A stretch of DNA of 64,000 bases. It comes from Chrysomallon squamiferum (taxonomy: Eukaryota > Animalia > Mollusca). Made by a program: the position numbers and the translations under genes. Below are positions 1-29,271 of the stretch, in pieces. Each line of letters starts with the position of its first letter. Position 1 is the stretch's first letter. The DNA lies in assembly GCA_012295275.1 (NCBI GenBank), contig CM022670.1:14818001-14882000 (forward strand), in the 5' to 3' direction. The notes under the pieces were generated by a model. That model made no database searches. It was given only the letters and a program-made list of their open reading frames with translations, and was not told where the DNA came from.

Positions 1-1944
1 TGATAGAATTTGTGTGTCTATTTTTGTGGGTGGGTGTATGAATGTGTGTGTGAGAGAGAGAGAGAGAGTTTGTGTGGGTATGTGTGTGTGTGAGAGAGTT
101 TGTGTGTGTGTGTGTGTGTGTGTATGTGTGTGCCAGTGGGTGATATATGAATTCAAACAAGACAAAATATTTGCTATCACATATATGATTTCCACCAAAC
201 ATTAATATAACATGTTCTTAAACACAGTTATTTTTTCACATAATCAGCTTGTTTTTAATTTGCTGCTTGGACTATTTCCCAGTCCACTTAGTGCTCTGTT
301 TCTAATTAATCTATGAAAGGCTGCCTTAAAGGCTGTTAAAAAAAAAAAATTTTTTTTTGGGGGGGTGTTGTTTACTTTTTTAAAATAAAAATATCCTTCT
401 GGTTAATTCATAAAATGACATTTAATAAAAATAATGTTATTAAATACTCATTCTTTTAATCTAATAAGATTCATTCAAGTGATTTACATTTTTGAAATGT
501 GTACACATTGAGTATTTTATACATATTAAATCCCTTAAACTGGTTAGTGAAACTTTAAATCAAATTACTGCCTTACTTGTATTTACTGTTAAAATAACAT
601 TTGGGCTTATAAATCCACAATCAAGACTCTGTACCTTAATATTTTTACAAAATGTGTAATTAGATGTTTGAAAATTATATTTCAAAATTTATCTTATTAA
701 AAATTCTTTATATAAATGCTGAGTAAACTGGTGAACCATATAAACAGGCCTACCAGTTCTGAAAAACATGTCTTTACTTCTGACTGCCAGGTTTCAGAAA
801 ATAGATAACTTTAAAGATAAAATAAATAAATAAAAGATAAGGTGAAGGACATGGATGAACTTACCCAGGATTCAGATAAATGTTGAGACTTTGACATTTT
901 CTCTAGGCTGTTTGTGTGAGTTGATATGCTGTTTACTTTGTATATGTTTCTTTATTTATTTTTGTTCTTATTTAATTATTTATTTATTTTGTAATTTATT
1001 TTTTAAGTAGTAGTAGATTCTTGTTATCTATTGTTATGTTGACATTATATTTCACAGTATAAAAGTTAATTTATTTAGGTGTAAAAATCGACACTGAAAG
1101 CTTTTTTATATATATTATGATGAATATAGACTGAAGCATAAATTCTTTATAATAATCATTGTTTTTTTTTTTTTTTTATTGTTATGGATTGGTTTTTGTT
1201 GTTGTTGTTTATTTATTTTTATTTATTTATTTATTACTATTTTTATTTTATTTTTTATTTATTTATATACATATATTTTTTTATTATTTATTATTTATTA
1301 TTTTATTTAATTTTTTTTTTTTTTAATTTCTTTTTAATGTTATTATAGTTATTATTATTTTTTTATTTTTTTTTATTTTTTACTTTATTTATTTATTTAG
1401 AAATTAACTGTTTGTTTGTTCTCTCCAGAAAGTGCAGAAATAAATAAAACTTTTACTAGTCTATTTACTACAATGTTTAAAATTGTTAAATTTGAAAGAG
1501 AAAAACATTTATAATTTTTTTCTTTAATTAATCATACCTAACTGTAAAATAGGAGAACACATTTTACTACACATTTACTTCTTTCTGGTTAACTGGGTAA
1601 AGCACTGACCTGTAATGATGCAGTATTTTATACAAGTTTTTAACTTCAGGTAATTAAAGTTTTTTTACATTGAACTCAGGGTCAGAGTACAAATGTTACT
1701 CATTTGTTTGTCACACAATAAGCTTCCTGTCACCTGTACATGCCAACTTTCCCTCTTTTAAAACCACTCAGTCGTATAATAACAACAACAACAACAACAT
1801 CAGTTATAATACTTTCACTGACAACAACATTATTAATAAAGTGTTCACTGACACAGCAACAACAACATCGTTAATAAAACTGTTTGTTTCTGCAGTTGGT
1901 ACAACAACAACATCAATAATAAAATATCTTTATTCTTTAATTGA

Positions 1945-2170
1945 TATGATAATAGTAGTAGTGGTGGTAGTAGTAGTGGTAATTATAGTAGTAGTAGTAA
2001 TAATAATGATAATAGTAGCATTAGTAGTAATAATAATGATAATAGTAGCAGTAGTAGTAATGGTAATAACAGTAGTACTAGTACTAGGAGTAGTAATAGT
2101 AGTAGTAGTAATATTAATAATAATAATAATACTAGTAGTTGTAGTAATAATAATAATAAAGATAATAAGA
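1945..2170. repeat. Compound (GTA/ATA)n trinucleotide microsatellite in LOX-A intron 1
   Basis: Run of agtagtagta/ataataata. The homologous spot in LOX-B (about 22845-22890) is much shorter. It produces the spurious Val/Ile and Leu ORFs. Confidence 0.85.
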
Positions 2171-2899
2171 ATAACATTTTAATTTCTTCTACATGGTTAT
2201 CTATTACATACAGGTTGTTATTGTTGTTTTTGTTTGTATTTGTGTTCATTTTTGTTTGTTTGTTGTTGTTTTCTAAGTAAATAAAATTCACTCTTTAAAT
2301 ATTTTTGCTTTTGCTTTAAGTCATTTAATCTGGTTTGCTTCAATGAATTAAGTCAACATTTCTAATTTCTTTTCAGAAAATGTACATTAAAACGTTTTCA
2401 GTCCTTATATTGATTGTTGACTTTTTTGAAACATTTTCTTTTCTTTTTTTTTCACTTGTTTAATCATCTCCAAAACAAGAATGTGACCAAATAACAACTG
2501 AAATTTGTTTTTTAAAATCAACTATCAGTTAGTTTAAATTTGAAAGGAATGAAGATAACAGTCTCCCCAAATGACAGTTTCCCCTCACCAATATCTCTGA
2601 TAGTAGAAAACAGTGACAAGTTGTCATTTGTAAAAAAAATTGGAAAAGATGATTGATTAGGTTTGTGTTAGAGGATTGCAATTTTTTTTTTAATTAAAAT
2701 TTTATATCATCAATCAAAATTTTTTTTTTTTTTTTTTATTATTTTATTTATTTATTTTTTTTTTTTTTTACTGTTATGTAGAACAACTTGACAAAACTTA
2801 GGAACACTCATATTTTTATAATTTATTTTTATTTTTTTTTTTTTAACTTCAGTTTTTAAAAAAGGGATTTTTACTATTATTTTTTTCTTCTATTTTCAG

Positions 2900-5800
2900 A
2901 TTAAGGATGTGCCACCTGATGAGCAGTTCTCCTTTGATTACAAGGTACATGTTGTTTATGTGTCATTTATTTTAACATCAGCTACTTTATTATTAACAAC
3001 AACATGTAGCTGCACTCAGTGTTAATACAGAGAAAACAGAATAAAAGAAAGACTGACTCACTGTGAACAGTAGATGATATATTTGTAACATAATATTTCT
3101 GTCTTTCATTCCTACAAACAGATATACACAAACACATGTAATACACAGCATATACTCTTATATCTGACATATGTACACACACTAACACAAATACATACTC
3201 TATCATACTTTCATATATTTGCATAAAACATACTCTTACATACAGACACCCCATGCACACATTTTTTCACATAATATTTCTCTCACACACGCACACACAC
3301 ACACAGAAACACACACACACACATACACACATGTGTTATTAAATACATACATACATATTCACACATATGACATACACAGAAAGACATATGTACACACAAC
3401 AAATACAGATCTAGATATCTGTGCACAGAAAAACACTTGAAGTTAGTTGTAAAATTGTATGATCTACATGCCATGTCTAGATAACTGTAATCTGTAAATA
3501 TTTTTCCTTGTGCAGGACACTGTCACAGATTAGTTTGTTTAAAGTCACTCACTATTGCAGTTGTTCCGTTTCAGTGGGATATTGTGTCTTACAAAATCCA
3601 GCTCATAGCCATGAGCAGAATGGTCAAACTGACAGCTGGAAACTGGGAAAGTCTGTCACATCTGACAAACGTGTACACCAAAAAAATCTTCAACATTCCC
3701 CAGGTATGACAATCATTACATAATCAATAATTAGAATAGTTATTATCTTCTTTTACTATTAAATTTTTCTTATTTATTTAGTTTCATTATCATCGCATTT
3801 TCATTTTAATAGAATTTGATTTGTTTGATTTCATTATTACCTATTTTAATTTCATTTTTTTATTTTTTATTTAATTTCTTTATTAGCCTATTTTAATTTT
3901 AATAGATTACATTTATTTAATTTCATTTTTGATAATCTGTAAAACAGGTATTTATGAATTTTACTTTCATGTAAAAACATGTTGCACTGTTAGTTTTAGT
4001 TGACACAGGATACTACCAAACAGTAGTTCTGTTCTTTCAGTAATGTGTTATTAAGAACAACACTGAAATAAAGTGAAACATTTTCAAACATTTCCAAACA
4101 TTTCACATTGTTGCATCATTCTAATATGTAGAACTACTCGTTTAGTTTGATATGTTATTCACATTGTTACATTGTTCTAATATGTAGGACTACTGGTTTT
4201 AGTTTGATATGTTATTCACATTGTTACATTGTATTAACATGTAGGACTACTGGTTTTAGTTTGATATGTTATTCACATTGTTACATTGTATTAACATGTA
4301 GGACTACTGGTTTTAGTTTGTTCTGTTCGTTCATTAATGTAATTATGAAGAATGCTGAAATAAAGTGAACCATTTTAAAAGTGTTGACATTGTTGTAGGG
4401 TGCAGACAGATGGAGTAATGATCTGTTTTTTGGAAACCAGCGAGTGGCCTGTCTCAACAACTGCATCATTCGACTGTGTACAGCCATTCCAGACAAGTAA
4501 TACAGAAATTTAACTTCACATTTCACCAGCCTAAATATTACTAAATAAATGACTGTTATACTGCATTTAATTTTAAAAATTAAAAGGTGTTCCATAGAAT
4601 TAATTTTTTGTGATTATTTATATAACACTTACATACATACATACATACATACATACATGTACACACACATATATATATATATACACACATACATATAAAA
4701 ATAAATATATACAGCCAGATATACTCACACATACATAAAAATAAACATACATATCAATACATACACATATTAATACGTAATATAAATACACTCACAGACA
4801 CACACACACATATGTACCTGTGTGTCTGTGTGTGTGTGTATACATAAATATAGGTGTTTTTGTGTGTGTGTGTGTGTTATTTTTTGCACACTATAAAATG
4901 ATGTGCTAAATGTTTTGTCAGTAGTAATTGAGTATAACGAGTATTATCATGTTGTGCAGACTGGCAATTACAGAAGAAATGCTCAAACCTCTGCTAGAAG
5001 GTCTGAGTCTGGAGCAAGCCATTCAAGACAAACGTTTGTTTCTGTGTGACTACGAAATCCTTACTGGAATACCCTGCAAAGAAGACTTGATTGTAAGCTT
5101 GGAGTCATTTCTTAGTAAACTTCATAGAAATAGATCTCTTCAGACTTCGTTGAATATATAGTAAACATTATTAAGGGTTGATCATTTCTAAAGGATTTTA
5201 TTTTGATAAAAGAGAAATGACGAGTTTTATTCTTGAAATCCAGTTCTTCAGAATAAAATGATTTTTTTTTCATGTTAAGCTGTTACAAATTTTGCACTAA
5301 TAACAAACAGTTCAAGATAATTCTACAAAATTCATAGGATATATTATAATATTTAAACCACCTGTTACTTCTGTATAACTTTATATTTCTAGAACATTTA
5401 TAATAATTAAATAAATCAATCAATCAATAATGATAATAATAATCTTTAAACAGTTTATTACTTTGTGTATTACTTTGAATTTGTAGAATCTAATAATCAT
5501 ATAATATCGTTTAACATAATACAATATAGTAAGTTATTTAAAGATCTTTGTTCTTACAAAGTAATAATACATACAAACAAATCTTTAAATCACTTAATAT
5601 GTTAAGCAGTTATTTAAACACATGTGTATGTGTGTGTGTCTGTGTATTTGTATGTAGATATTACTGTGTTTAAATACACATTATGTTTAGTTGCTGTTTT
5701 GTTTTTCTCATCCAGTGTCCCGATCCTCTTGGTCTGTTTTTTCTGAATGGAAACAAGAGACTGGTTCCCATAGCAATCCAGCTGTTCCAGAAACCTTCCC

Positions 5801-6014
5801 CAGACAACCCTGTATGTATCTCTTCTCAGTTTTAATCACCACATTTTTGATTGAATCATTTTACAATTAAAACCATTACTTTTAACAGAACTATATTTGT
5901 ATTTAGTGACCAACAGTCTACAAGTTTTCTTGGTCACCATAAACTATAAGTTGTGTGTGTCTGTTTGTATGTATATGTATGATTGTGTATATAATATGTG
6001 TATGTAATTATGTA

Positions 6015-6045
<31 letters not shown>

Positions 6046-6143
6046 CTATATATATATATAAAGTGTGTGTGTGTATGTCATATATATGTGTGTATAGGTA
6101 TTATGTATCTATGTATGTATATATGTAAAAAATGTGTAAGTCT

Positions 6144-6193
<50 letters not shown>

Positions 6194-7796
6194 CATTAGA
6201 GAGAAATAATCAGATGACAGAGAATGTGATGTATACTCTTGGGACTTGCATTGATTATCAGCTAATTTCCCAGCTTATCACCACTGTATGAATGCATTAA
6301 TGTTAAGTAGATTTTAATTCTAACATTAAGCTGATCATGTGTCCCAGGGCATGTTGATCAAAGTGGATATTTCTCTCAGGGAACAATTAACACAAACTGT
6401 GGACTCACTTAAACATTAATTTGTAATGGTTTACGAAACCACCAAGTGGCAAATTATTAACATTTATTTTGAAACGAGCATAATGTTAGACATGTACTGG
6501 CAAAACATGCATTTATTTTGTTAGCATTTCTTAAAACATATTTTGAAACAGTTGTTTATTTTGATAGTATTTCTTAGACATATTTTTTTTAAATAAGTTT
6601 TAATAGTGCTAGAGTTTCCAAAAAAATATTTATTTTGAAATAAGTATTTATTATCTTAGTATTTCTAAAACAGTATATTGTGAAACTCTTAAAATGTACT
6701 TTGAAACAGTCATTGGTTATGTTAGCATTTCTTTCCCTGGTAATTTTGCCACAAACTAAATATCAGGATGTTGTTACTGCATCAAGGTAATTTTGTTTGT
6801 TATCTAGCACTGATAGTAAAATTAGGAGTAATTTAATATTGAATATAACAGTTTTCTGCAATTTTCTGCAAATTATGACATATAATATTTAAAAACAATG
6901 TTCAGAAATGAACTGTATTTAATTTGGTATTGAAGAAATTAAATATTGTCAATTTAATGTAAATCCTGACATACTGATTTCATAAACAGTTGTTTTAAGT
7001 TCAGAAATGAATTGTATTTTGTTTAATACTGAAAATTACATCATATTGTATTCATAACTGTTTTAAGTTCACAAACAAACTGTATTTTTTATATACGTGT
7101 AATAATAACATAACTGTTTTAAGTTCACAAACAAACTGTATATTGTGTTTATATATAATAATAAACAAGATCTTTTTGATTTTTTTCAGGTTTTCTTGCC
7201 AACTGATCCATCGAACACCTGGGCTATAGCTAAAATGTGGTTTAATCTTGCAGACTGTGTTGTACACCAGTCACTCACTCATTTAGGTTTGTCACTTTTC
7301 TTAATCAGAATATTCACCTACATCTGTAAACAACAGCTGTGTACATCACTTGTATACAATGCAGCTGACATGTCAGAACAAAATGACAGATCATTTGTAA
7401 TTATGTAACGTGTTCTCCAGTGAGTTTGAATTTGTATCAGAATCAGTATTTTAATTTGTAACTTTAACCATTTTCAGTTTTCTGGCACTGTTTAGTTTGT
7501 CAATACATTTTAGTATTAAAAAATTCACCTCAATATTGGTGTTGCTGGCCATAGTAAACCCCAACAAAACTGTGCCTGTCCCACTCCAGATTATACCATT
7601 ATGATTTTTTATTTTTATTTTATTAAATTAATCTCTATTTTAATATCTAGAGATCTGTATTCAAACAAAGTCCGTACTAGTCCAAAATATAACCCAGGAT
7701 ATTATAGCTGGGCATGGGCTATTTTATACTCAGAGGTATACTTTGGATTATACTTTGTAGACAGAATTTTATCTTGAGTTTTTTATGTCTTTTGGG

Positions 7797-7873
<77 letters not shown>

Positions 7874-8589
7874 TAAATGTTTACTTGTGGTAGAATGTAG
7901 GAAAGTTTGTTTTATGATTTAGATCAATTTAATAAGCTAAAATGTTATTAAATACAGTATCTAGCTGTCATTTTGGAATTATTCAAGTTAGGAAGAATAC
8001 TGATATGGAAATAATCAGCATCTTTTTGTCATAAGTTAACATTTCATTAATTTTTTTTAATTATATATCTATCTTACTAAATTATAATTTGTATACAGAT
8101 CCTCTCAAATGATCGTCAACTTTGCAAGATGTTACATAATAAAAATTATTCAGAAAACATACATATTATTAATAGGTTGTTTTTAAATTCAGGGTACTGC
8201 TTATTTAATTTTGTGATTGTTATAAGACTTATTTGTATTAAAGTTGTAAACTGTCATTTATGTTTATTTTTATTTTCTCATTAAATCTATAACTATCATT
8301 TTCATTTGATACTTTCTCTATTTTTTTTTTTTTTTTTTGTATGTGTGTATGTCCTGCATTTACATGTGACTACATATTTTCTTTAAGTGAAAATGAATAT
8401 GAGAGGACACCAAGTTAGAAACATTTATTAATTTTGAACTTTTCAAATGCAGGTTCTACACACTTGTTGATGGAGGGTGTAACTGTGGCAACCCACCGAA
8501 ACTTGTCCCAATCTCATCCAGTTTTCAAATTACTAGCTCCACATTTTCTTTACCTGATTGCCGTTAACAGGTAACATTTATATCCGTCC

Positions 8590-8620
<31 letters not shown>

Positions 8621-9534
8621 AGTATATATGTCTGTGTGTGTGTGGGTGTGTGGGTGGGTGGTTGGGTGTGTCTGTATGAATGTCCAGAATTTCTCATTGA
8701 TAAATTTTTATAATTTACTGTTCAAGAATTTTGCATGAAATGAAATATATCCTGCATCACAAGACATATCACACATAAACAAAATATACCAGATAATTAA
8801 ACCTTGATTTCAGTTAAATTAAAAATAGCTGAATGTGTTTTGTTGTTTTTTTCAGTCGAGGTCTGCAGACTATTCTTTCACCAAATGGCTGGGTGGACAA
8901 AGTGATGAACATTGGAAGAAAAGGAATGTTCTATCTAATAAAGAAAGGGTAAACATTTTATGTATTCCTTGGATTATAATTGATACCTATTTATGAATAG
9001 AAATAACAAAAACCAGTGATGATAAATAAATATATACACACACATACATATACAAACACACATATACATAAATATTTATAGAGAAAGAAAAATAGATATT
9101 TTTATATATGTATATATATGTATCTACACACTCAGTGAGAGGTATAAGATTCATAAATATGTAGTGCCAAGTAATCTAAACTTTGATTTACTGTTGTTTT
9201 TGAAATTTATTTATTTATTTATTTATTCATGAGTATCATTTTATTTTTGTTTATCAATTTCCGTGGAGTTAAAATGTTTGTTACAAAGGCAACAGTTGTC
9301 TCCCCTGTACAATTTTGAGCAATAAAATCTCGGTCCATTTTATTAAAAATAGTCTAACAAAGTTTCATGTCTGAGACAAATGATTGCACTCCAGTTGTTT
9401 TTATATTTTACTTTATTAATAATTAATAAAAAAAAAAAAGAAGAAGAAAAAAAAAAAAATAATAATTAAAAAAAAAAAAAAATAATATAATAATATTAAC
9501 AACAACAACAGTAATAATAATAATAATCATCCTT

Positions 9535-9622
<88 letters not shown>

Positions 9623-12600
9623 TACAGGGCACTCTCCCAGAGGAATATGAGTGATATGTTAGTAACTGATATTTTTAAGTATGAATATTTCCAAATTCAG
9701 TTATAGCACAGAGGTGTGTTAAACTGATTGATAGTGTGAAAAAACAGTTCTTTACAAAGTAAATTACAAGAGATCAAATTTCTGTCAACCAACTGATCAG
9801 TAGAGTTGTCTAGTATTTTATCAGAAAGGTTATTTGCAGAAAATATTAACTTTATTCTTTAAACTTCTTTATTTTACTATACAGTTATCTTTAAATGTTG
9901 TCATTTAAAATTTATAAATTTATATATATGAATCTTTTAAAAATTTTAAATATAATGACTGTTTCAAGAGTAGAAAATGATATTAAACTGTAGTATAACT
10001 TTTAAATTATTTGAAATTATAATTGCATAAACAGATGTATATGTGAAGTTTAATAACACAGACCCAAGTTTTTCTAGTGTAGGTAGTATTTACAGGACAC
10101 TGTTAATTTTTGTAAATAATTATGCTTCTTTGTATTTATAATATTGATAATGAATTATAAAAATGAATCAATAAAAGATAGATTCTATAACATTCACTGA
10201 CAAACATAAACTGAAAATAATTGCAATCACTTTTTAATAATTTTTTTTTTGTAATTTTAAAAAAGATATATAATTATTATTATTATTTTTAATTTTTTTT
10301 TATATTATGTTTTTAGAGGATTCAGCATTCAATGCTTTTGTAATACTATTTCCTTAAACCTTATTAACAATTCTTGGAGTATAGAGTTGTCTTTCTTTCT
10401 TTTTTTTGAAGATGTATTTTTGATGTGGTGTCTAAACAACAGCAAACATGTTCTTAGTTTTTCTTTAAGGAAACACTAGGAAATAGTAAAATACGTTTAT
10501 GTGTGGTAGAGCAGTTTTCCAGTGACTACTATGTTCATTGTTGCAGGTTGGCTCAGTGGAGAGTGGATGTACAGGGCACTCTCCCAGAGGAACTGAAAAG
10601 TCGTGGAGTAACTTTCATTTACACTAGAACAGAAACCCGCTTTAATTTTGATAGTTACATTTGTTTTAAAACAGTACTAATAAAAATATATTTTATATTT
10701 TAAACAGTACTACTAAAAATAAATTTGTATTTTAAAATAGTACTAATAAAACAGTATTTTAAACAGCACTACTAAAATATATATTTGTATTTTAAAATAG
10801 TACCAATCACAATACATTTATATTTTAAAATAACTGATAAAAATGCATTTATATTTTAAAAGTATTAACAAAAATATATTTATCTTTTAAAATAGTACTA
10901 ATAGAAATACACTTATATTTTAAAATAACAGACAGAAATATATGTTTTAAAATAACTAATAATAACGCTTTTATTTTTTTAAATTGTATTAATAAAAATA
11001 ATTTATATTATAAAATATCTGTAAAAAAATACATTTATATTTTAAAATAGCACTAATATAAATACATTTTTTTAAATAGTATTAATTGAAATACATTTAT
11101 ATTTAAAATAATTTTAAAAAATACATTTATAAAATAATGCTAATAAAAATAATTTTATTTTTTAAATTGGTACAAATAAAAATATATTTATATTTTAAAA
11201 TAACACTAACATAAATACATTTTTATATATTTTTTAAAATAACTAATAAAGACCACCTTTGATTGAAAATAACCAAAGAAAATTAATATATTGTTTAAAA
11301 TACATCATAAAAATACTTATCATTAATAAAAATACATTTATCTTTTAAAATAACTAATAAATATATTTTTTAAAATAACTAATATAAATACATGTTTATT
11401 TATATTTTGATATAGCTAGTAAAGATCCATTTATTTTTTTTAAATTAATTAATATATATATATATATATTTTAAAATAACTAATAAAATATATTTACATG
11501 TGCATTTAAGAAAACTAATAAAAGTTGCATTTATATTTTAAAATAACAAAAATACATTTAACTATTAAAATAGTACAAATAAATATATTTTAAAATAACA
11601 AAAATTTAAATTTGTTATTTAATTCAGTTTTTATAGCATGACTAGGCTTTTATGTATATCTCATAACATTTATCATAATGTTTAATACACAAGGATTGTC
11701 AATAATTTTTTGGTTTGAAAGGCATGTAAACAGAATTAGAAATAATTTACAGTTTTATAAAATATTTGTAATTACTGAACATAACCTTTTAATAAGTTGT
11801 AGCTATTTAAAATAATGTATTTATATCTTGTCCTAGAGAACAGTCTTGTATAAGAAATGAACACTTAATCAGTGTATATCTGTACAGAGATCAAATTCAG
11901 AGTGTTTGATGATTGGTTTATTTCAGTTTACAGACTCCAGCATTCTGCCAGGATACCATTTCCGTGACGATGCTTTGCTTCTGTTTGAATGTATTGACAA
12001 ATACATCAGAAATTACATCAGTCTATATTACAGTAAGAAAATATTTCATACAGTCTGGCAACACATTTTTGACTGGATATAGTTTTTTTTGAATTGTTGA
12101 TTATTCTAGTTTGAAACACGTATAACATTCTGTTGAGACAAGAAAGTAGAAGATGGTCATGTGTATAAATGTATAAACATGTTTGCAACCAAAAGAAATA
12201 AAAATATATATATACATATATATATATTTTACAAATATAATTATCTACCCAGAAAATATGGAGAAAATAAAAGTAGAATACGTTGCAAATTAAAACAATA
12301 AAAGGCTTGACTGCCACTAGGATCTTCTCATTTTTTTTGATTTCCCTAAACTTAAAATCGTGAAAAATTCATTCAAAAACTACAAACTGCAAGCCAAACT
12401 GATTTAGAACAAAGATACAAAATGTGTATCCATTTTTGTTGTTTAACAAGTTCTAGACAATTTTTTTTCATGTATTGTTTCAAATGAAGAAAACTCTAAG
12501 GTAGGTGTAAGTGTACAATACATGAACAGCTGAGTCAAACTGTTATTTATTTAATTTATTCAGAGAAACCCTCGATGATTGAAGGGGACTGGGAACTGCA

Positions 12601-15275
12601 GGCCTGGGGCAGTGAGCTGGTGCAGGAGAAAAAAAAAAAGGGGGGTCGGTTTACTGGTCTGTATTTAATACTTCTTATAACATTTTGTTAATGTTCAGTT
12701 GAATCGGAATCTAAATATTAGTTTCTCTATAGTGGATTGATACTGGTATATATATTAATATTTTTTATATTTGATGTTTATCACAAAATTATCACAAAGT
12801 AATAATATTTAGCTAATAAATGAATAAATAATATAATAAAAAATAATAAAAATTTGTTATAAATATAAATAAAACTACATAAATAAATAAATAAATAAAT
12901 GAAAATAATAATAATAAAATAAAATAAATAATACGTATGTTTTAGGCAAGTTAATGTTACGAATATTAGTAGAAGGTAAGAAATGCAGATATTAAGAATT
13001 AACATCCATGTTTGTTGTTGACTGTTTTTCATGGCTTTTTGGTAAAAACTAACATTTTACTTCTTCTAATAAGATTGGAATTAGTTCAAACATGTTTTAT
13101 CTGAAAACACAGAAAGACAGACAGACAGACAGACACACACACACTACAGAGAATAACTAATAAGCATGTTTTACTAATTGCTACAGCTGAGTATGTCTTA
13201 ACATGTGTTTTAATTTTTACATTATTCTAAAAATTACCTGTAAACTTCATAAATATTAAATGTTAAACATATGTCACAATCAAATTTAACTACTGTGATT
13301 TGTAAAACTTTTATGAATTTCAAATTAAATAAATGAAAAAAAAAAAATTTGATCTTGAATTCAAAGATTTTAACTGACACATATACGTCAAAAATAATAA
13401 TACATAAAATTACTTCTAAGAATAAATTCAAAAAATAATTATATAAATTCAACAAAAAGCCTTCAAATAATTTTAATAATAAATAGTAATAACTAGCGTC
13501 TCAAATAGGAAAACAACAATCACATTCTGTTTACTTCATCCATGATATCAATTAGAAGATTTACATGTTTGAAATATTGTTGGATTGTCTATTGCTAGGC
13601 TTTCTAACTAATAAAGATTAACATAATAATTAATATTTTTAAATTATTGCACGATTGCTTACATGTGAATTCAGAACTAAACATTTGTTTTTAGCTAATT
13701 ATTTTCTGCTACAAATACTGTAGATATGATATGCAGTGTTATAATAGTGAGAATTTTAACATTTGCTTAAAAATAACAACAAATGTAATAGGATACAATT
13801 TTATTATTAGAAATTACAAACAATGTGATTAAAAATAATTTGTTGTTGAATTTGAAGTTTTATACTATTAAACTGAGCATCCTCTATGGTATTGGATAAT
13901 AATATCTATATAAATTGTATATGTTTGAAAGAAGGTCATTTCAAAACTGAAAAAAGTTTTGACAGTAAACTGAAACATGTTGAATTGCACTGAAATGTAA
14001 CATTCATAAATTGCTTTTGATTTCAGGGAGTACCAAACAATGGGAAGTTTAAGACAGTGGAGGATATAGTGAAGATGTGCAGAACAATTGTGTACACATG
14101 CAGTGTGTCCCATGCCGCATCTAATTTCGCACATTACGAAGAGTACGCATTCCCACCTAACTACCCCACTTACTTGAGAGGACTGCCACCCAAAGACAAG
14201 GTGACACAGACATTAAATGATTTCTGTGGAATATACCTATCAGAATACAGATCATTTCCACACACACACACACATACATTAGTTTCTTTATCTTTTAAAA
14301 ATATTATTAATCTTTTTGAATATTATTTTTGTTTAATATGTAGGAATGTTTTGTTTTCTAAAAGTCAAAACAGACATATTCTAAAATCTAACTCATGAAA
14401 TAATTTTTTTTTTTTCATATGCTTACTAAATTTTGTCTGTGTAAATAATGATCATATTTTATTAATGCTTGTTCTATATGAAGTCTTTATAATTATCTAG
14501 CTAAAACAAAACAGAAACAAACACATCTGAATATCTTTTTTATGTGTGTTGAAAATTATTTTTCTTTGACAAATTACTAGTTTTTATTTGGAATTATTTC
14601 ACTGAGTATTGTTTAATGTTTGACTTGGCAGACTGCACTGACAGAACTAGATATCCTAGGCTACCTGCCTGACAAACCAACCACTCTGGATGTGATGGTT
14701 GTCACCAAGACCCTGAGTGTTCGGGGAACAAAAAGTATCGGAGACTTTGAGGTGCAGTACATCTTTGATCCAAAAGCAAGGGACATTGTGGATGAGTAAG
14801 TTGTTAAAGTTTACTGTGTGTGTAAAACTGTTGTGAGGCCATCAAAAATATTTTAAAACAACTTAAAACCTTAAATTATTCTAACAAACAGATTGCATTC
14901 TTTGGTTATTTTTATTATTGATTTCAGGATGCATAACTGACAAAACGTTCAGAATCACCCATGTCTTCCCAGAAATTGTTTTAAACATGGTTCTTGCTTG
15001 TGTTTGAACCTTGAATAATTGATTATTGACATTAGTGATTTATAAAAAGAAAAAGAATTGGGATTATAAATATGAGAAATAAATCAGTAAAATGTAAGTA
15101 ACAATACTGCATGATTATCAGAGTACTCTTATACAGAATTGTTTCTGTACTGAATTTCAGATTTAGAAAAGATCTTCGCGAAGTTAGCAAGATTATCAAA
15201 GAAAGAAACAAGAGCAGGGATCCTCAGTTCCCATACCCTGACCCAGATGTTATTCCCAACTCCATCGGCATTTAA
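2900..15275 (+). CDS. Lipoxygenase paralog A (animal-type PUFA lipoxygenase, catalytic domain), coding exons 2-15; the PLAT exon 1 lies upstream of the window; one apparent +1 frameshift in exon 12
   Basis: GT-AG exons: 2900-2944, 3575-3703, 4399-4496, 4960-5092, 5716-5811, 7190-7286, 8453-8570, 8856-8948, 10547-10607, 11927-12032, 12564-12656, 14027-14200, 14632-14795, 15161-15275. Phases are compatible except at exon 12. Hallmark motifs: [36 protein letters not shown] (two Fe-ligand His), HPVFKLL, YHFRDDA, HAASNF (His/Asn ligands) and C-terminal PNSIGI* (terminal Ile ligand). Confidence 0.93.
4104..4325. repeat. 60-bp tandem repeat, about 3.5 copies, in LOX-A intron 3
   Basis: A unit containing cacattgttacattgtattaacatgtaggactactggttttagtttgatatgttatt recurs at 60-bp spacing and gives the repetitive ORF 4147-4368. 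Confidence 0.9.
7799..7870. repeat. (TA)n microsatellite
   Basis: Perfect TA run; absent from the homologous LOX-B intron. Confidence 0.9.
9537..9622. repeat. (TA)n microsatellite
   Basis: Near-perfect TA run in LOX-A intron 9. Confidence 0.9.
10660..11600. repeat. Degenerate AT-rich minisatellite (about 35-38 bp unit) in LOX-A intron 10
   Basis: Recurring ttttaaaatagtactaataaaaatacatttata-like unit. Confidence 0.75.
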
Positions 15276-15324
15276 CAGTATCCTGAAAATACATGCGCTG
15301 CATAGTAGTGAGAACAGTGAAATG

Positions 15325-15997
15325 AATAATATACTGAAAATACACAGACATGTATAATATACTGAAAATATAATGACATGTATAATATACTAAAAACACA
15401 CTAACGTATAATATACTGAAAACACACAGACATGTATAAGATAATAAAAACACAATGACATGCATAATATACTGAAAATACACACACACGTATAATATAC
15501 TGAAAATACACAGACGTATAATATACTGAAAATACAGACATGTATAATATACTAAAAACACACTAACATGTATAAATATACTGAAAACACACAGACATGT
15601 ATAAGATAATAAAAACACACTTGTATGCATAATATACTGAAAATACACAGACATGTACACTATACTGAAAAACACACAGATGTATAATATACTGAAAACA
15701 CACAGACATGTATAATATACTGAAAAAATACACAGACACGTATAATATACAGAAAATACACAGACATGTATAATATACTGAAAATATAATGACATGTATA
15801 ATATACAGAAAAATACACAGACACGTATAATATACAGAAAAATACACAGACATGTATAATATACTGAAAAATATAATGACATGTATAATATACAGAAATA
15901 TACAGACACGTATAATATACAGAAAATACACATGGTTCTAGAAAATATATAATGACGTATAATATACAGAAAATACACAGACACATATATACAGAAA
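15325..15997. repeat. About 28-31 bp minisatellite starting about 50 bp after the LOX-A stop codon and running into the assembly gap
   Basis: Unit ataatatactgaaaatacacagacatgt is repeated more than 20 times and explains the ORFs at 15250-15986. Confidence 0.92.
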
Positions 15998-16197
15998 NNN
16001 NNNNNNNNNNNNNNNNNNNNNNNNNNNNNNNNNNNNNNNNNNNNNNNNNNNNNNNNNNNNNNNNNNNNNNNNNNNNNNNNNNNNNNNNNNNNNNNNNNNN
16101 NNNNNNNNNNNNNNNNNNNNNNNNNNNNNNNNNNNNNNNNNNNNNNNNNNNNNNNNNNNNNNNNNNNNNNNNNNNNNNNNNNNNNNNNNNNNNNNNN
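15998..16197. other. Assembly gap (200 N)
   Basis: Exactly 200 N. A round number suggests a fixed-size scaffolding spacer of unknown true length. Confidence 0.97.
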
Positions 16198-16764
16198 TTG
16201 TAAAATTATTTATTTATTCTTTTTACTTTTTTATGAATTATTAATCAAATCAAATATAAAAACAGTCGGATGTAACATCATTTGTCTCAGACATGAAACA
16301 GTGTTAGACTATTAATATTAAAATGGACTAAGATATTATTGCTCAAAATTGTACAGGGGAGACAACTGTTGCCTTTGTAACAAACATTTTAACTCGTAAC
16401 TTTTTTAACTCCACAGAAACTGTTAATCAAAAATAATATGATATCATAAATAAATAAATAAATTTAAAAAAACAACAGCAAATCAAAGTTTCTTCATATT
16501 TCTCACAGATTAGTAAGCACTACACATTTATGAATCTTATACCTCTCACTTAGACTACTTTAGAAATTAAAAATCAAACAAAATGTATGAGTGTGTAGCT
16601 ACATATATCAAAATATCTATTTTTCTTTCTCTATAAATATTTATGTATATGTGTGTCTGTATATGTATGTGTGTGTATATATTTATTTATCATCACTGGT
16701 TTTTGTTATTTTTTTCATGAATAGGTATCAGTTATAATGCAAGGAAAATAAATAAAATATTTAC

Positions 16765-17105
16765 CTTTTCTTTACAAGATAGAACATTCCTTCTCTTCCA
16801 ATGTTCATCGCTCTGTCCACCCAGCCATTTGGTGAAACAAGAGTCTGCAGAGCTTGACTGAAAAACAACAAAACTCAGGAATATTCAGCTATTTTTAATT
16901 TAACTGAAAACTTTGAAATAAAATGAATTGAAGGTTTGATTCTCTGATATATTTTGTCGTACAGAATGGCTATTTATGTGTGATATATCTTATGATGCTG
17001 GATGTATTTTCTTGAAAAGTAAATTATAAAACTTTATCACCAAGAAATTCTGGACACTCACAGAGACACACAGAAACACACACTGATATATATATATATA
17101 CTCAG

Positions 17106-17142
<37 letters not shown>

Positions 17143-20100
17143 GAAACACACACATATACACACACAAGGATATGAATGTTACCTGTTAATGGAAATCAGG
17201 TAGAGAAAATGTGGAGCTAGTAATTTGAAAACAGGATGAGATTGGGACAAGTTTCGGTGGGTTGCCACCGTTACACCCTCCATCAACAAGTGTGTAGAAC
17301 CTGCATTTGAAAAGTTCAAAATTAATAAATGTTTGTAACTTGGTGTGCTCTCATAAAGAAAATATGTAGTCATATGTAAATGCAGGACATACAAACATAC
17401 AAAAAAAAAAGATCCAGAGAAAGTATCAAATGAAAATGATAGTTATAGATTTAATGAGAAAATAAAAATAAATATAAAGAAAATGAGTGAAATGTTAACT
17501 TATGACAAAAAGATGCTGATTCTTTCCAAAACAGAGTACTGTCTTTACATATCAGTGTATTTTTTCTAACTTGCATAATTTCAAATTGGCAGCTTGTAAT
17601 TAAATTTATCTAAATTATAAAACAAACTTTCCTACTTTCTGCCGCAAGTAAAGATTTATTAAAAAACGTACAACAGACATAAACAACTCAAGATAAAATT
17701 CTGTCTACAGAGTAGAGTCCAAAGTATACCTCTAAGTATAAAATAGCCCATGCCCAACTATATCTGAAAACACATCTCTAGATATTAAAATAGAGATTAA
17801 TTTAAAAAATAAAAAATAAAAAATCATGGTGGTATAATCTGGAGTGGGATAGGCACAGTTTTGTTGGGGTTTACTATGGCCAGCAACACCAATATTGAGG
17901 TGAATTTTTTTAATACTAAGATGTATTGACAAACTAAACAGTGCCAGAAAACAGAAAATGGTTAAAGTTACAAATTAAAATACTGAGTCTGATACAAATT
18001 CTAACTCACTGGAGAACACGTTACCTAATTACAAATGGTCTGTGTTTTGTTCTGACATGTCAGCTGCATTGTATACAAGTGATGTACACAGCTGTTGTTT
18101 ACAAGTGATGTACACAGCTGTTGTTTACTGATGTAGGTGAATATTCTGACTAAGAAAAGTGACAAACCTAAATGAGTGAGTGACTGGTGGACAGAAGCGT
18201 CTGCAAGATTAAACCACATTTTAGCTATAGCCCAGGTGTTCGGTGGATCAGTTGGCAAGAAAACCTGAAAGGAATCGAGAAGTTTATTATTACATATGAA
18301 CAAAATGTCGTTTTTGTTTGTGAACTTAAAACAGATATGGATACAATATGATGTAAGTTTATATTAAAATGCACCACACTGTTATTTTCAGTATTGAACT
18401 AAATAAAATTCATTTCTGAATTTAAAACAATTGTTTTTAAATATTATATGTCACAATTTGCATAAAATTGCAGAAAACTGTTATTTTCAATATTAATTAC
18501 TCCACATTTTTCTATCAGTGCTAGATAACAAACAAAATTACCTTGATGCAGTAACAACATCCTGATATTTAGTTTGTGGCAAAATTAGCAGGGAAAGAAA
18601 TGCTAATATAAGCAATGACTGTTTCAAAGTACATTTTAAGAGTTTCACAATATACTGTTTTAGAAATACTAAGATAATAAATACTTATTTCAAAATAAAT
18701 ATATGTTTCGAAACTCTAGCACTATCAAAACGTATTTTAAAAAAATATGTCTAAGGAAATGCTATAATAATAAAATAAATGCATGTTTTGCCAGTACATG
18801 TTTAACATAATGCTCGTTTCAAAATATATTTATATATATACATATACAGACACACTCACAGATACATAAATACACACGTATACAATACATTCACATACAT
18901 AAAAATATACACCAATACATACATACATACATACATAGTTTACATACGTACATAGTTTACACATACATACAAATATACAAACCCACACATAGACACACAC
19001 AACTCATAGTTTGTTGTGACCAAGTAAACTTCTAGACTGTTGGTCACTATTTAAAAATATTTCTGTTTTAATTGTAAAATGATTCAATCAGATATAAACA
19101 TATAAAAAAATATATGGTGATTAAAACTGAGAAGAGATACATACAGGGTTGTCTGGGGAAGGTTTCTGGAACAGCTGGATTGCTATGGGAACCAGTCTCT
19201 TGTTTCCATTCAGAAAAAACAGACCAATAGGATCGGGACACTGGATGAGAAAAACAAAACAGCAACTTAACATAATTTGTATTTAAACACAGTAATATCT
19301 ACATACACATATACAGACACACACACATGCACATGTGTTTAAATAACTGCTTAACATATTAAGTGATTTAAAGATTTGTTTGTATGTATTATTACTTTGT
19401 AAAAACAAAGATCTTTAAATAACTTAGTATATTGTATTATGTTAAACAATATTATGTGATTATTAGATTCTATGAATTCAAAGTAATAGGCAACGTTATA
19501 AATTGTTTAAGGATTATTATTATCATTATTGATTAATTAAATAATTCATTTATTTGTTTATTTATTTATTCATTTATTTATTTATTTATTTAGTTATTAT
19601 AAATGTTCTAGGAATATAAAGTTATAGAAGTGACAGATATTTAAATATAATATATCTATTAATTTTGTAGAGTTATCTTGAACTGTTTGTTATCAGTGCA
19701 AACTTTTTGACAGCTTAAAATGAAAGAAAATAATTTTATAATGAAGAACTGCTTTTCAAGAATAAAACTTGTCATTTCTCTTTTATCAAAATAAAGTCCT
19801 TTAGAAATGATCAACCCTTAATATGTTTACTGTATATTCTATGAAGTCTGAAGAGATCTATCTCTATGAAGTTTACTAAGAAATGACTCCAGGCTTACAA
19901 TGAAGTCTTCTTTGCAGGGTATTCCAGTAAGGATTTCGTAGTCACACAGAAACAAACGTTTGTCTTGAATGGCTTGCTCCAGACTCAGACCTTCTAGCAG
20001 AGGTTTGAGCATTTCTTCTGTAACTGCCAGTCTGCAACATGATTATACTCGTTATACTTAATTACTACTGACAAAACATTTAGCACATCATTTTATAGTG

Positions 20101-23100
20101 TGCAAAAAATAACAGACACATACTAAAACAGCCTATATATACGTGCACACACACACGCACACACACATATACACACATGTATGTATGTGTTTTTTGTATG
20201 TCTGTGAATGTATTTATATTATGTATTAATATTTGTATGTATTGATATGTATGTGTGAGTATATCTGTCTGTATATATGTATTTTTTATATGCGTGTGTA
20301 TATATGTCTGTGTGTACATGCATGTATGTATGTATGTATGTATGTATGAATGTGTGCATGTATGTATGTATGTAAGTGTTATATAAATATTCAAAACAAA
20401 ATTATTTCTTTGGAACATACTTTTCAGTTATCTAAATTAAATTCAATATAACAGTCATTTATTTAGTAATATTTAGGCTGGTGAAATGTGAAGTTAAATG
20501 TATGTATTACTTGTCTGGAATGGCTGTACACAGTTGAATGATGCAGTTGTTGAGACAGGCCACTCGCTGGTTTCCAAAAAACAGATCACTACTCCATCTG
20601 TCTGCACCCTACAACAACGTCAACACTTTTAAAATGGTTCACTTTATTTCAGCATTCTTCATAATTACATTAATGAAAAAAAAAAGAACAAAATTACTGA
20701 CTATTTTAAGTATCTTGGGTGTGAATAACAGATCAAATTAGGACAAATAGTCATATATGTTTGCAGAAAAATAAAGTGAATTGTTTTAAAATGGTTTACC
20801 ATTTATTTGAATTTTGTTCATAATTATGTTATTGAATTAACAGATATCTTTATTACTGTTAAATATGTTGTTTGTGAATAACAGATCAAACTAAAACCAG
20901 TAGTCCTACATATTAGAACGATATAACAGTGTGAAATATTTGAAAATGTTTCACTTAATTTCAGTATTGTTCATAATTACACATTACTGAAAGAACTGAA
21001 CTCATGTTTGGAAATATTTTTGCATGAACTAAAACAAACAGTCCAACATGTTTTATACAGGATAGTAAAATTCATAAAAACCTGTTCTATAGATTAGCAA
21101 AAATGAAATTAAAAAAACGTAATCTATTAAAATAAAAATAAGATAATAATGAAATTAAATAAATGAAATCTACTGAAACTAAAATAAGGTAATAATGAAA
21201 TTAAGCAAATCAAATTAAACAAATCAAAATGAGATGATAATGAAATTAAATAAAAATTTAATTATTAAAAGAAGATAATAACTTTTCTAATTACTGATTA
21301 TGTAATGATTGCCATACCTGGGGAATGTTGAAGATGTTGTTGGTGTACACATTTGTCAGATCTGACAAACTTTCCCACTTTCCAGTTGTCCATTGGATAA
21401 TTGTGCTCTGAGCTTTGAGCTGGATGGTTAAATACCCAATATCCCACTGAAACAGAACAACTGCAATAGTGAGTGACTAACTTTCCTTTAAACAAACTGT
21501 GAGAGTATACTGCACAAGGAAAATATTTACATGTAACGGATTAAAGTGATCTAGATATGGCGTGTAGATCATACAATTTTACAACTAACTGCAAGTGTTT
21601 TTCTCTGCATAGATATGTAGATCTGTATAGGTTGTGTGTAGATATGTCTTTCTGTGTATGTCATATGTGTGAATATGTATGTATGTGTTTAATAACATGT
21701 GTGTATATGTGTGGGTGTGTTTCTCTGTGTGTGCGTGAGATAAAGTACATGTGAGAAAATGTGTGAATGGGATGTCTATATGCATGAGTATGTTTTATGC
21801 AAATATATGAAAGTATGATAGAGTATGAATTTGTGTTAGTGTGTGTATATATGTCAGAAGTAAGAGTATATGCTGTGTATTACATGTGTTTGTGTATATC
21901 TGTTTGTAGGAATGAAAGATAGAAATATTATGTTACAAATATATCATCTACTGTTCACAATGAGTCAGTCTTTCTTTTATTCTGTTTCCTCTGTATTAAC
22001 ACTGAGTGCAGCTACATGTTGTTGTTAATAATAAAGTAGCTGATGTTAACATAAACAACATGTACCCTGTAATCAAAGGAGAACTTCTCATCAGGTGGCA
22101 CCTGCTTAACCTGAAAACACGAAAAAAAAAAAAATAATAGTAACAAAAATAAATTATGAAAATATGAAATACAACCCTTTTTTGAAAACTGAAGAAATAA
22201 TAAAAATAAAAATAAAATAGTTAATATGAGTGTTCTTAAGTTTTGTCAAATTGTTCTATATAACAGTAAAAAAATTAAAAATAAAATAAATAAATAAAAA
22301 TACAAACATAAATTTTGATTGATGATAAAAAAAATTTAATTAAGAAAAAATTGCAATACTCTAAAACAAACCTAATTAATCATCTTTTCCAATTTTTATT
22401 AGAAATGACAACTTGTCACTGTTTTCTACTATCAGAGATATTGGTGAGGGGGAAACTGTCATTTGGGGAAATTGTTATCTTCATTACTTTCAAATCTAAA
22501 CTAACTGATAGTTGATTTTAAAAAACAAATTTCAGTTGTTATTTGGTCACATTCTTGATGTAATGTTTTGGAGAAGTGAAAAAAAAATGTTTTTAAAACA
22601 TCAACAATATAAGAACTGAAAACGTTTTAGTGTACATTTTCTGAAAACAAATTAGAAATGTTGACTTAATTCAATGAAGCAAGTAGATTAAATGACTTAA
22701 AACATAATCAAAATATTTGAAGAGTAAATTTTATTTACTTAGAAAAGAACAATATACAAACAAAAATGAACACAAATACAAACAAAAACAAGAATAACAA
22801 CCTGTAGGTAATAGATAACCATGTAGAACAAATTAAAATATTATTGTTATTATCTTTATTATTATTATTACTACTACTACTATTATTATCATATCAATTA
22901 AAGAATAAAGATGTTTTATTATTGATGTAGTTGTTGTATCAACTGCAGAAACAGTTTTATTAACGATGTCGTTGTTGCTGTGTCAGTGAACACTTTATTA
23001 ATAAAAAGAGAACAACAAAACCAATCATTAACAATAAAGAAAAAAACAATGATTATTATAAAGAATTTATGCTTCAGCCTATATTCATCATATATAAAAA

Positions 23101-23853
23101 AAAGAATTCAAAGTCGATTTTTACACCTAAATAAATTAACTTTTATACTGTGAAATATAATGTGAACATAACAATAGAAAATGAGAAGAAAAATAATGTA
23201 TTTTGTATGCATCTACTACTACTTTAAAAAAAAAAAAATAATAACAATAAATAATTAAATAAGAAAAGAAAAATAACACAGACTTTAAGGCAGCCTTTCA
23301 TAGATTAATCAGAAACAGAGCACTAAGTGGAATGGGAAATACGGCAAGCAGCAAATTAAAAACAAAATGATTACGTGAAATAAAGGCCTGATGAAACTGT
23401 AAGAACATGTTATATTAATGTTCTGTGGAAATCAGATACGTGATAGCAAATGTCTTGTTAGAATTCAGCTATCAACCACTGGCACACACACACACACACA
23501 CACACAGACATGGTAAAACAGTAATCTGTATAATTTTAAGTGGAAGACTTCAAACCATAAACCACCAACTAGAGAAATTATCACAATATTTTATTTTAAA
23601 AATTAAAAACAAAATCTGTACATTTTGGAAAGTTTTCCTTTCATCTATTTTCTGTGAAAGGGTGAACATGTAAAACTCATAATGAATATGACATATCTAA
23701 GAATTCTACATAGAATGTGGTACACCACCTACCCACTGACAATTACAGTGAGATACTGTTGTTATATTCATGATAATGTGGGACACATGGGTGGGTATGC
23801 CTGTGTGGATGGTTGCGTGTGATCTTCAAACTTTATTCTTACAAAATTATTAA

Positions 23854-23889
<36 letters not shown>

Positions 23890-24435
23890 TCAGTAATGGG
23901 GGTATTAAAACAATATTAATGTATACAAATATCACAACATTACCTGAGTGGGCATGCCAGGAATTTTTTGTTCATACTCGTAGAGTAATTTCTTTTCCGT
24001 CAGTTCCATGTTCCTCTGTTTTAAATTGTCATCTTCCTGGGGAAGCGACGTGTCCAGATTTTTTATCACGTAATGGTAATGTGGTTTAATCCATCGGAAC
24101 ATCGGGAACACAGCTATGTCATTCGTCATTCTGTTTTCCACCATAACTTTTTCAACATACCAGTCGCTACGAAACCCACCATCGTCCCTCCAGATTTCAA
24201 TTTTCTCAACTCTTCCCAGAGAAGAGAGTTTGCTTTTTGGCACCGTGAAGGTGTCTAAGCTACCTTGCTCGAAATCGTCGTGCAGAACGTTGTTCAGCGT
24301 GATGGTGTCGGAACTGTTTTTCTGGTCGTCGTGGAGTATTATGTAGACGTTGGCGTTGGTGCCCGCATTTTTCCTATCGCCTGTTCTGATGTATATGACA
24401 TATTCCGAGTTTAGATGACGTGGAGAGAAGTCCAT
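16765..24435 (-). CDS. Lipoxygenase paralog B, coding exons 1-9 (PLAT/LH2 domain plus N-terminal part of the catalytic domain); 3' exons not assembled
   Basis: Minus-strand exons 24435-23944 (MDFSPRHLNSEYVIYIRTGDRKNAGTNANV...DDFEQG...WYVEKV...FPMFRWI, a PLAT domain), 22110-22066, 21446-21318, 20608-20511, 20031-19899, 19240-19145, 18264-18168, 17300-17183, 16857-16765. Exons 2-9 match LOX-A in length and phase, the frame is open, and [12 protein letters not shown] is present. Confidence 0.93.
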
Positions 24436-24530: not shown

Positions 24531-25084
24531 CCGACAAAACGACATGCACATAATAATAAAGATCTGACCTAACTGATATCATTTACGTATACCAATATTA
24601 CTCCGTTCATTTTTTGGTTATTACGAGAAAATATTGTTCAAGTACTGGAGAGTGTCAACAAGACCTATACAAACCCACCTATACACGAATACCCATATCA
24701 GTCATATGAATGGCGATTAGAAACAGTGAGAAAATTAAGGAAATAAGTCGAGAGGTGAACATTAAAAAAAGGATGACTGTATATATTCTCTTTCCATTCG
24801 AAAACGATAGAAAATAATAGATATTTGTTTTTGACACACATGAATATTTCCGTTTCTCATACGGGAAATACAAAATTAAATTTAGTTCCATCTCTTCTCT
24901 TTATTGATTTGTAAAAATAATAATAATTATTGTTGTTGTTGTAGACAGCAAACACACCAATGTGATAAAAGAAACAATCCCCCACCTTTCGAGAAACTGG
25001 CCGGAGTGTGCGTGCACCAGTTTCTGACGTGAAACCTAGAATGTGATTTAGAACGGTGAAAACTTTTATCGTTTAGTATTTTTA

Positions 25085-25773
25085 TGGTGAAAATCACATA
25101 TAATAAAAACAAATTTACCACGTAAATATTTTTAATACATTTGACAAATAATTAAGCTAGTTAAAGATAAAAATTACAGTTAACAACTAATCCTTAAAAA
25201 CTCATGTTCAGCTGGATCACCTCTCAGATCCATATGGTACAAACTCTGTAACTGGTGAATTATGATAACGCGCTTCTTACAACAGTAACAGTGAAAACTG
25301 GTAAAAACAATTTGATCTCTACGTTATATACAATTTGACGCAAAGATCAACTGGAAGCAGCATGCTGCTGTTTTGGTTTTTTTTTTTTTGTCGTTCTTAT
25401 AGTGGTGGCCGAATCGCATGGATATTAAGACATCCAAATTGTTATTTGGGTGCATCTTCAAATTTATTAATATATAGAGAAACTGAATATGATATTGAAT
25501 TAAACCTTGGTCATTTTTAAACTTTATATACCTAGCTACGGACTCCTATACATTTCTTGCCCACGATATCTATATATTGGGTATATGAACAAAAACGAGG
25601 ATTATTTTCATGTAAAAGATTAAAACAACACGAACTTAGTCAAGGTCGCTGCAATGGTCGTTTACAGACGGTAATTTTGTATGTCCTGTTCTTGTTGCGC
25701 ATGCGCCTGGTCACCCATCGCATCTTTCAAGACCGATGGATACTTATAAATAAATTCATGTTTTTATTTATTA

Positions 25774-25825
<52 letters not shown>

Positions 25826-28921: not shown

Positions 28922-28961
<40 letters not shown>

Positions 28962-29236: not shown

Positions 29237-29271
<35 letters not shown>

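Follow-up and report, generated by a model that had tools for sequence, protein, structure and literature searches.

A young pair of lipoxygenase genes in Chrysomallon squamiferum that differs at the Gly/Ala switch and at predicted pocket positions

Can one locus encode two sibling lipoxygenases that add oxygen to opposite ends of the same substrate? The question is raised by a 64,000-nucleotide stretch of the Chrysomallon squamiferum genome (assembly GCA_012295275.1, contig CM022670.1, positions 14,818,001 to 14,882,000 of the forward strand; hereafter the window, in which all positions are counted). It carries two lipoxygenase (LOX) genes, LOX-A and LOX-B, that differ at the Gly/Ala switch, known as the Coffa site. 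A sequence-only reading of this DNA had proposed that a recent duplication split into an R-type (Gly) and an S-type (Ala) enzyme. As judged from the comparisons below, the pair is a real, young lipoxygenase duplication with a derived change at the Coffa site and a rebuilt pocket. That LOX-B is a working paralog whose product (probably S) and substrate handling have both changed strikes us as about evenly balanced, while a clean division into an R enzyme (LOX-A) and an S enzyme (LOX-B) is doubtful.

Both switch codons proved to be as first described. LOX-A (2900..15275, + strand) has GGT (Gly) at 8860..8862, preceded by Arg, and a contig from the public sequencing run X1 spans 8752-8933 with no other letters. 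LOX-B (16765..24435, - strand) has GCT (Ala) at 16851..16853, preceded by Gln. The Asn at the end of LOX-B exon 8 falls opposite residue 539 of soybean LOX-1 and residue 425 of a tagged 5-LOX chain, and the Gly/Ala site lies three residues past this conserved Asn. On these alignments the site matches Ala542 of soybean LOX-1, named in PMC13059375, and Ala410 of 5-LOX, with an inferred 18-residue tag offset for the latter. A Littorina homolog aligned without gaps at the site, where 5-LOX has Ala and the coral 8R- and 11R-LOX both have Gly. By these alignments the assignment to the Coffa determinant is sound, as had been claimed.

The recent duplication was likewise borne out. Self-comparison of the window gave one long inverted match (~100-9450 against 23510-16200), and all eight exons shared by the copies have the same sizes (45, 129, 98, 133, 96, 97, 118 and 93 nt). 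The introns can be aligned, with 327 of 3859 block-aligned bases differing (8.5%), and the shared exons differ at 54 of 809 bases. At the protein level 38 of 269 shared codons carry an amino acid change (85.9% identity), which is incompatible with the proposal that the pair is a natural version of single-site Ala/Gly mutagenesis. The nearest named protein, Gigantopelta aegis XP_041357698.1, is 79% identical to LOX-A and 75% to LOX-B, a match that points to a neomphaline gastropod as the likely host. The trees had 119 rows, limited to proteins of 470-760 aa and leaving aside one whose switch residue is aberrant; the tree built from columns other than the switch placed LOX-A and LOX-B as sisters (Shimodaira-Hasegawa-like approximate likelihood ratio support 92) with G. 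aegis outside them (100). The LOX-B branch (0.11) is ~2.8 times as long as that of LOX-A (0.04). Because G. aegis, Haliotis and the nearest limpet proteins all carry Gly, Ala is derived in LOX-B, and the suggested polarisation on a tree thus resolves to Gly-to-Ala on the LOX-B branch. With G. aegis as outgroup, 23 of the 38 differences are derived in LOX-B, 8 are derived in LOX-A and 7 are unpolarised (P = 0.011).

The switch is not the only part of the pocket that has changed. Exon 3 (3575..3703 in LOX-A, + strand; 21446-21318 in LOX-B, - strand) encodes the alpha-2 lid helix, in which 11 of 18 residues differ between the copies; the limits of this helix (182-199) come from an AlphaFold model of a Haliotis relative, not of LOX-A or LOX-B, that served for the fold and the helix limits only. 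Twenty-five of the 38 differences fall within 74 lid and pocket positions (of 269), compared with 15 of 44 between LOX-A and G. aegis, in segments picked after the differences were seen. In coral 8R-LOX, four residues stand out in the available part of PMC13059375: Arg182, which lies near the carboxyl, then Gly427, the clamp Leu431 and Ala589. With the offset set by count, the counterpart of Arg182 in LOX-A is Lys186, where LOX-B has Thr; Lys occupies this position in 101 of 118 homologs, which are the best matches of one search and mostly molluscan. Gly427 is the switch site itself. At the shield Leu equivalent to Leu431, LOX-B has Leu and LOX-A has Ile409 (8872..8874, + strand, with the LOX-A letter at 8872 in the dominant RNA contig). 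The equivalent of Ala589 is Thr in LOX-A and falls in the unassembled part of LOX-B. The Arg before the switch (position 404) is found in 96 of 118 homologs and the Gln of LOX-B in none of the 118; Ser400 of LOX-B occurs in 1 of 117. Of the 70 positions at which at least 90% of homologs agree, LOX-B retains 68.

Two further pocket positions also differ between the copies. At the position of 5-LOX Phe359, LOX-A has Cys and LOX-B has Ala (~7253-7258 and the 18222-18204 region, respectively), and at that of 5-LOX Ala424 LOX-A has Val and LOX-B has Ala (~8902-8904 and 16811-16809). We take these to be the Borngraber and Sloane positional determinants.

Do these changes divide the pair into R and S enzymes? 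LOX-B has both the Ala and the shield Leu that characterize S-lipoxygenase sequences, and LOX-A has the Gly of R-lipoxygenases. Several observations weigh against LOX-A being a plain R enzyme. The invariant shield Leu that follows the switch by one turn in R-lipoxygenases, and that is present in 116 of 117 homologs, is Ile in LOX-A. LOX-A departs from its homologs at Val401 (Ile in 113 of 117) and His556 (Gln in 116 of 118) as well, and by its sequence it is not a clean ancestral enzyme (I401V, L409I, Q556H). Furthermore, bony fish lipoxygenases that share its Arg-Gly motif yield mainly 12S-hydroxyeicosatetraenoic acid (12S-HETE) despite their Gly, breaking the rule that Gly means R, and mutating the Arg raises the 8R product, according to the available part of PMC10531496. 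The proposed R and S enzymes keep their Gly/Ala difference, and the Arg-Gly motif, Ile409, His556 and the unassembled catalytic C-terminal third of LOX-B raise doubts about the chirality attached to it.

The fish enzymes and Ile409 also favor an explanation in which both copies are active with no R/S split, LOX-A making S or mixed products and the divergence concerning mainly substrate choice (eicosapentaenoic acid, docosahexaenoic acid or esterified lipid) or regulation through the lid helix. Most of the differences indeed lie in the lid helix and not at the switch, and the invariant Leu that is coupled to the switch in the available text of PMC13059375 is the residue that LOX-A lacks. That text, however, also states that the Gly/Ala rule holds with "a few exceptions", and even in the exceptional fish enzymes Gly-to-Ala reduced or removed the 8R share (PMC10531496, available part). 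The model of the Haliotis relative, too, folds best with coral 8R-LOX chains, with 5-LOX almost equal. We judge a pair of active enzymes without an R/S split to be unlikely.

If LOX-B is instead a working paralog with an altered product and altered substrate handling, the changes would be read as follows. LOX-A would retain the ancestral Gly and a basic anchor on the lid helix, as in coral 8R-LOX. In LOX-B the methyl group of Ala would close off that end of the pentadienyl radical to O2, which would be added at the opposite end to give an S product; this product would be 12S if the substrate keeps the tail-first entry of 8R-LOX. The loss of both candidate carboxylate anchors (Lys186 and Arg404), together with the rebuilt lid, would shift the substrate register or favor esterified lipid.

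We considered whether positive selection had rebuilt the pocket. The overall ratio of non-synonymous to synonymous rates (dN/dS) is 1.49, which is not distinguishable from 1 (P = 0.32). Non-synonymous changes in exon 3 number 19 in 101 sites and exceed what the intron rate predicts (P = 0.0009), and its synonymous change is raised as well (4 of 27.6 sites). Given this dN/dS value and the synonymous changes in exon 3, positive selection on the pair is not established. In exons 4-6 none of 77 sites carries a synonymous change, fewer than the intron rate predicts (P = 0.002), a pattern that suggests gene conversion, and the excess in exon 3 may mark an older block that escaped it. The overall ratio and the raised synonymous change in exon 3 count against the reading of LOX-B as a working enzyme with an altered product.

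One challenge to a working LOX-B, of which the sequence-only reading made no mention, is that it breaks off after exon 9 of 15. Its exons 1-5 lie at 24435-23944 (the PLAT domain), 22110-22066, 21446-21318, 20608-20511 and 20031-19899 and its exons 6-9 at 19240-19145, 18264-18168, 17300-17183 and 16857-16765, all on the - strand, with GT-AG introns throughout and an open frame of 433 codons. Exon 1 matches the PLAT profile PF01477 (E 2.7e-19). Past exon 9 there is part of intron 9 and then a 200-N gap (15998..16197) between the two genes, the only gap in the window. Both tblastn and blastn found no second copy of exons 10-15 anywhere in the window, and the last third of LOX-A matches LOX-A only. 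The missing exons are those that would supply the remaining iron ligands (the third His, the Asn and the C-terminal Ile); the first two iron His are present. The break point of LOX-B is homologous to an A-rich tract just ahead of a (TA)44 run in LOX-A, and on the other side a 28-bp tandem repeat runs from just past the LOX-A stop towards the gap (15322..15997, with ~22 copies over 15322-15932). The edge of the A-rich tract and (TA)44 run and the 28-bp array are both typical assembly break points. LOX-B is likely a complete gene cut by the gap, where near-identical 3' halves and flanking repeats probably broke the assembly.

Contigs from public runs offer hints of what lies beyond the break. 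These contigs were placed on 8400-12800 only, their depth is not a measure of copy number, and they drop rare variants. One X1 contig has six LOX-B-type letters at 9326-9347 and a joint at the same depth to 9679, beyond the point (~9460-9470 in LOX-A equivalents) at which the LOX-B assembly ends; the short side of this joint is just 26 letters, which lessens its weight. Over 9714-9903, X1 and X2 have two versions of intron 9, one of them LOX-A-like and the second with 13 other letters and 15 gap letters. The joint and the second intron version hint that LOX-B continues beyond the gap. The depth of X1 contigs at exons 11-12 is ~2 times that of single intron versions, which is only a hint as well. 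As a separate observation, 23 bases of LOX-A exon 10 recur at 9625-9647, directly after the (TA)44 run in intron 9; X1 and X5 contigs skip 9306-9647, and the copy may thus be an assembly artefact or a variant.

Words from the LOX-B region are present in public runs from three studies, at 53-67% in five runs and 39% in a sixth, and only 10% of these words also occur in LOX-A; one of the six runs may be the assembly's own source. At 8872 and 8875 in exon 9, X1 and X5 have both LOX-A- and LOX-B-type letters. In the RNA run X9, the dominant contig has LOX-A letters at 8872, 8875 and 8920 and just two other letters in exon 8, neither of them LOX-B-type. X9 contigs bridge three exon joints (8947>10546, 10607>11927 and 12032>12564), and RNA of the LOX-A type is therefore spliced. 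The LOX-A-type letters flanking 8861 point to Gly in this transcript. No LOX-B-type letter was found at 8872, 8875 or 8920 in X9 (0 of depth 278.7, in contigs of one library). As to the lack of expression that would count against the sequence-only reading, LOX-A-type RNA was seen, and LOX-B-type letters were absent at these three sites of this one RNA run. We rejected two candidate signs of LOX-B expression: the 0.06 share of LOX-B region words in X9, as 10% of the words are common to LOX-A and X9 was not placed on LOX-B, and a low-depth X9 intron contig whose gap total does not fit LOX-B.

Could LOX-B then be a partial or silent duplicate under relaxed selection, with its pocket changes a product of decay? 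The absence of exons 10-15 from the window and of LOX-B-type letters from X9 both speak for decay and against a working enzyme. The ~2.8-fold longer branch, a dN/dS near 1 and residues as rare as Gln404 (0 of 118 homologs) and Ser400 (1 of 117) would also fit. Set against this, the nine exons of LOX-B have no stop, frameshift or broken splice site in 1301 coding bases despite many indels in the introns; from 26 non-triplet indels in 3794 intron bases, ~4.5 frameshifts would be expected on one branch, a figure that the intron rate overstates for exons. The conserved core is also retained, and the contigs hint at sequence beyond the gap. We consider decay of LOX-B rather unlikely.

LOX-A has a flaw of its own, which is likely an error of the assembly. 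As assembled, it has a one-base frameshift in exon 12, in an A/G homopolymer (12628..12645, + strand). The base at 12629 is omitted at full depth in two DNA runs (X2 and X5) and in X9; X1 has no cover there. Without the surplus base the gene is open for 506 codons and all iron ligands are present (H362, H367, H549, N553 and I670 in LOX-B numbering). The gene model, which is backed by the RNA joints and by a Pfam Lipoxygenase match on exon 13, comprises exons 2-8 (2900-2944, 3575-3703, 4399-4496, 4960-5092, 5716-5811, 7190-7286 and 8453-8570) and exons 9-15 (8856-8948, 10547-10607, 11927-12032, 12564-12656, 14027-14200, 14632-14795 and 15161-15275, with the stop), all on the + strand. Exon 1, with the PLAT domain, is outside the window and presumably upstream. 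Contrary to the sequence-only picture, the window does not hold two complete genes: LOX-B is present as exons 1-9 and LOX-A from exon 2 on.

Other mismatches between reads and assembly touch LOX-A. At 8456, Ser365 is read as Tyr in X1 and the RNA run, and at 12005 Ile481 is read as Val in X1, X2, X9 and part of X5, both towards the family consensus; these differences may stem from errors in the assembly, from polymorphism or from a third copy. The last exons of LOX-A (14027-15275) break several positions that are at least 90% conserved (Q556H, Y656F, L659P and S669G), and this sole assembled 3' half could be a mosaic of LOX-A and LOX-B.

The inverted orientation of the two genes depends on the join across the gap, and a further explanation is that LOX-A and LOX-B are deep alleles, or gene-conversion mosaics, of one locus that scaffolding set next to each other, in inverted orientation, on either side of a gap. 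The copies do meet at an unsized gap, with only one 3' half assembled, and shared contigs lie under exons 11 and 12. At 8872 and 8875, X2 has LOX-B-type letters only. Some contigs agree with neither copy (at 8982, at 8456 and in an insertion at 8991), which could reflect allelic variation, mosaics or a third copy. An intron divergence of 8.5% with several large indels and a protein divergence of 14% are, however, high for alleles, and more than two versions occur inside single runs, though the runs may be pooled samples. A single locus seen twice is, in our view, quite improbable.

A set of paralogs with opposite switch residues is not in itself exceptional among molluscs. Of the 118 homologs, 70 have Gly, 47 have Ala and 1 has another residue, and the tree calls for at least 12 to 14 changes of switch state, a count that does not tell gains from losses. 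Both states occur within species in 12 mollusc species hand-picked for this, including adjacent Nucella genes; others, such as Dreissena, Mya and Mytilus, have Gly only, among the matches listed. Since both states recur within species, mixed Gly/Ala sets are ordinary in molluscs. LOX-A and LOX-B are therefore no rare case in kind; they are the most alike Gly/Ala pair of the set (85.9% against 76.8% for the next, LOX-B with G. aegis aside). Loss of the Arg before the switch goes with Ala in the raw counts (19 of 47 Ala proteins against 2 of 70 with Gly). When we tried co-loss of basic residues with Ala in independent-pairs tests, it was not significant (median P 0.25 and 0.63), and the raw link does not stand once the tree is taken into account. 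In the G. aegis protein, similarity ends past the exon 13 equivalent and the C-terminal Ile is absent, likely because its end is mispredicted.

A broader proposal, tentative at best, is that mollusc lipoxygenase clusters repeatedly spin off Ala (S-type) copies from a conserved Gly (R-type) parent. The pair would then be a switch in progress, with gene conversion holding the core identical while switch, anchors and lid are rebuilt in one copy, resulting in an R/S pair 14% apart. If true, the pair would show, as a natural experiment, which residues have to change along with the Coffa switch. With 38 differences in 269 residues, among them three of the four that stand out in coral 8R-LOX, it is a compact system in which to ask how widely the Gly/Ala rule applies and what else has to change with it, and it could help to calibrate predictions for the 118 homologs, of which 47 have Ala. 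Known mechanisms are left unchanged by the finding.

The remainder of the window (27.8% G+C, AT-rich animal DNA) holds other features. Directly upstream of LOX-B, 25083-37327 is an array of ~5 repeats of 2-3 kb each, 83-91% alike, with no convincing coding frame. At 38857-47731 (+ strand) exons encode calcium-binding EGF, ephrin-receptor-like and Sushi domains, presumably those of a SVEP1/SCUBE-like extracellular protein. Cysteine-rich exon-like frames at 54130-57280 (- strand) have no Pfam match at E 0.01.

Searches for related proteins and papers gave the following. A protein search with LOX-B exon 1 for longer proteins gave 3 matches among 202 candidates, and a fragment search with G. aegis residues 330-520 gave 10 among 98, none of LOX-A or LOX-B type by identity. 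We found no enzyme data for any cloned mollusc lipoxygenase in the literature searched, although PMC4204529, in the available part, treats 12(S)-hydroperoxyeicosatetraenoic acid (12(S)-HPETE) as a candidate signal in neurons of a gastropod. Neither this pair nor a switch between Gly and Ala in mollusc lipoxygenases was the subject of any paper listed, in a search whose coverage excluded most subscription papers.

How does the pair compare with lipoxygenases of known function? The mollusc family most resembles the Plexaura homomalla 8R-LOX (PDB 2FNQ/3FG1/4QWT) and the coral 11R-LOX (3VF1), with which it shares a PLAT and a catalytic domain and which are its top profile matches (E ~1e-155). Chains of 8R-LOX are also the best fold matches of the modelled Haliotis relative (template modelling score ~0.89, with 5-LOX scoring almost equal); identity to that relative is ~31%. 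Coral 8R-LOX is like LOX-A in its Gly at the switch and in the basic residue at Arg182, and unlike it at Leu431 (Ile in LOX-A) and Ala589 (Thr); it is unlike LOX-B at the switch (Ala) and at Arg182 (Thr). We saw no fused allene oxide synthase on LOX-B: its PLAT exon comes first, with a Met ~10 residues ahead of the domain, and it aligns from its start with stand-alone 670-aa lipoxygenases. The catalase-like domain that precedes PLAT in fusions of allene oxide synthase and lipoxygenase is thus not seen there, although RNA does not exclude exons further upstream.

Among vertebrate enzymes, human ALOX5 and the mammalian S-lipoxygenases (ALOX15, ALOX15B and ALOX12) share the fold and the iron ligands and have Ala at the switch, like LOX-B; they may not be orthologs of the mollusc copies, and the position of oxygenation cannot be transferred from them. 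The Arg-Gly lipoxygenases of bony fish such as zebrafish (D. rerio LOX1) resemble LOX-A at the switch. The mollusc clusters of "AOS-LOX-like" and "ALOX5-like" proteins, named by automatic annotation, belong to the same family, as in G. aegis, Nucella (KAL8593844.1 with Gly, KAL8593845.1 with Ala) and the Patella and Lottia sets. In mammals, ALOX12B (Gly, 12R) stands beside ALOXE3 and ALOX15B (Ala) in one cluster. These too are neighbors with opposite switch residues, but they are ancient and far diverged, whereas the introns of LOX-A and LOX-B can still be aligned.

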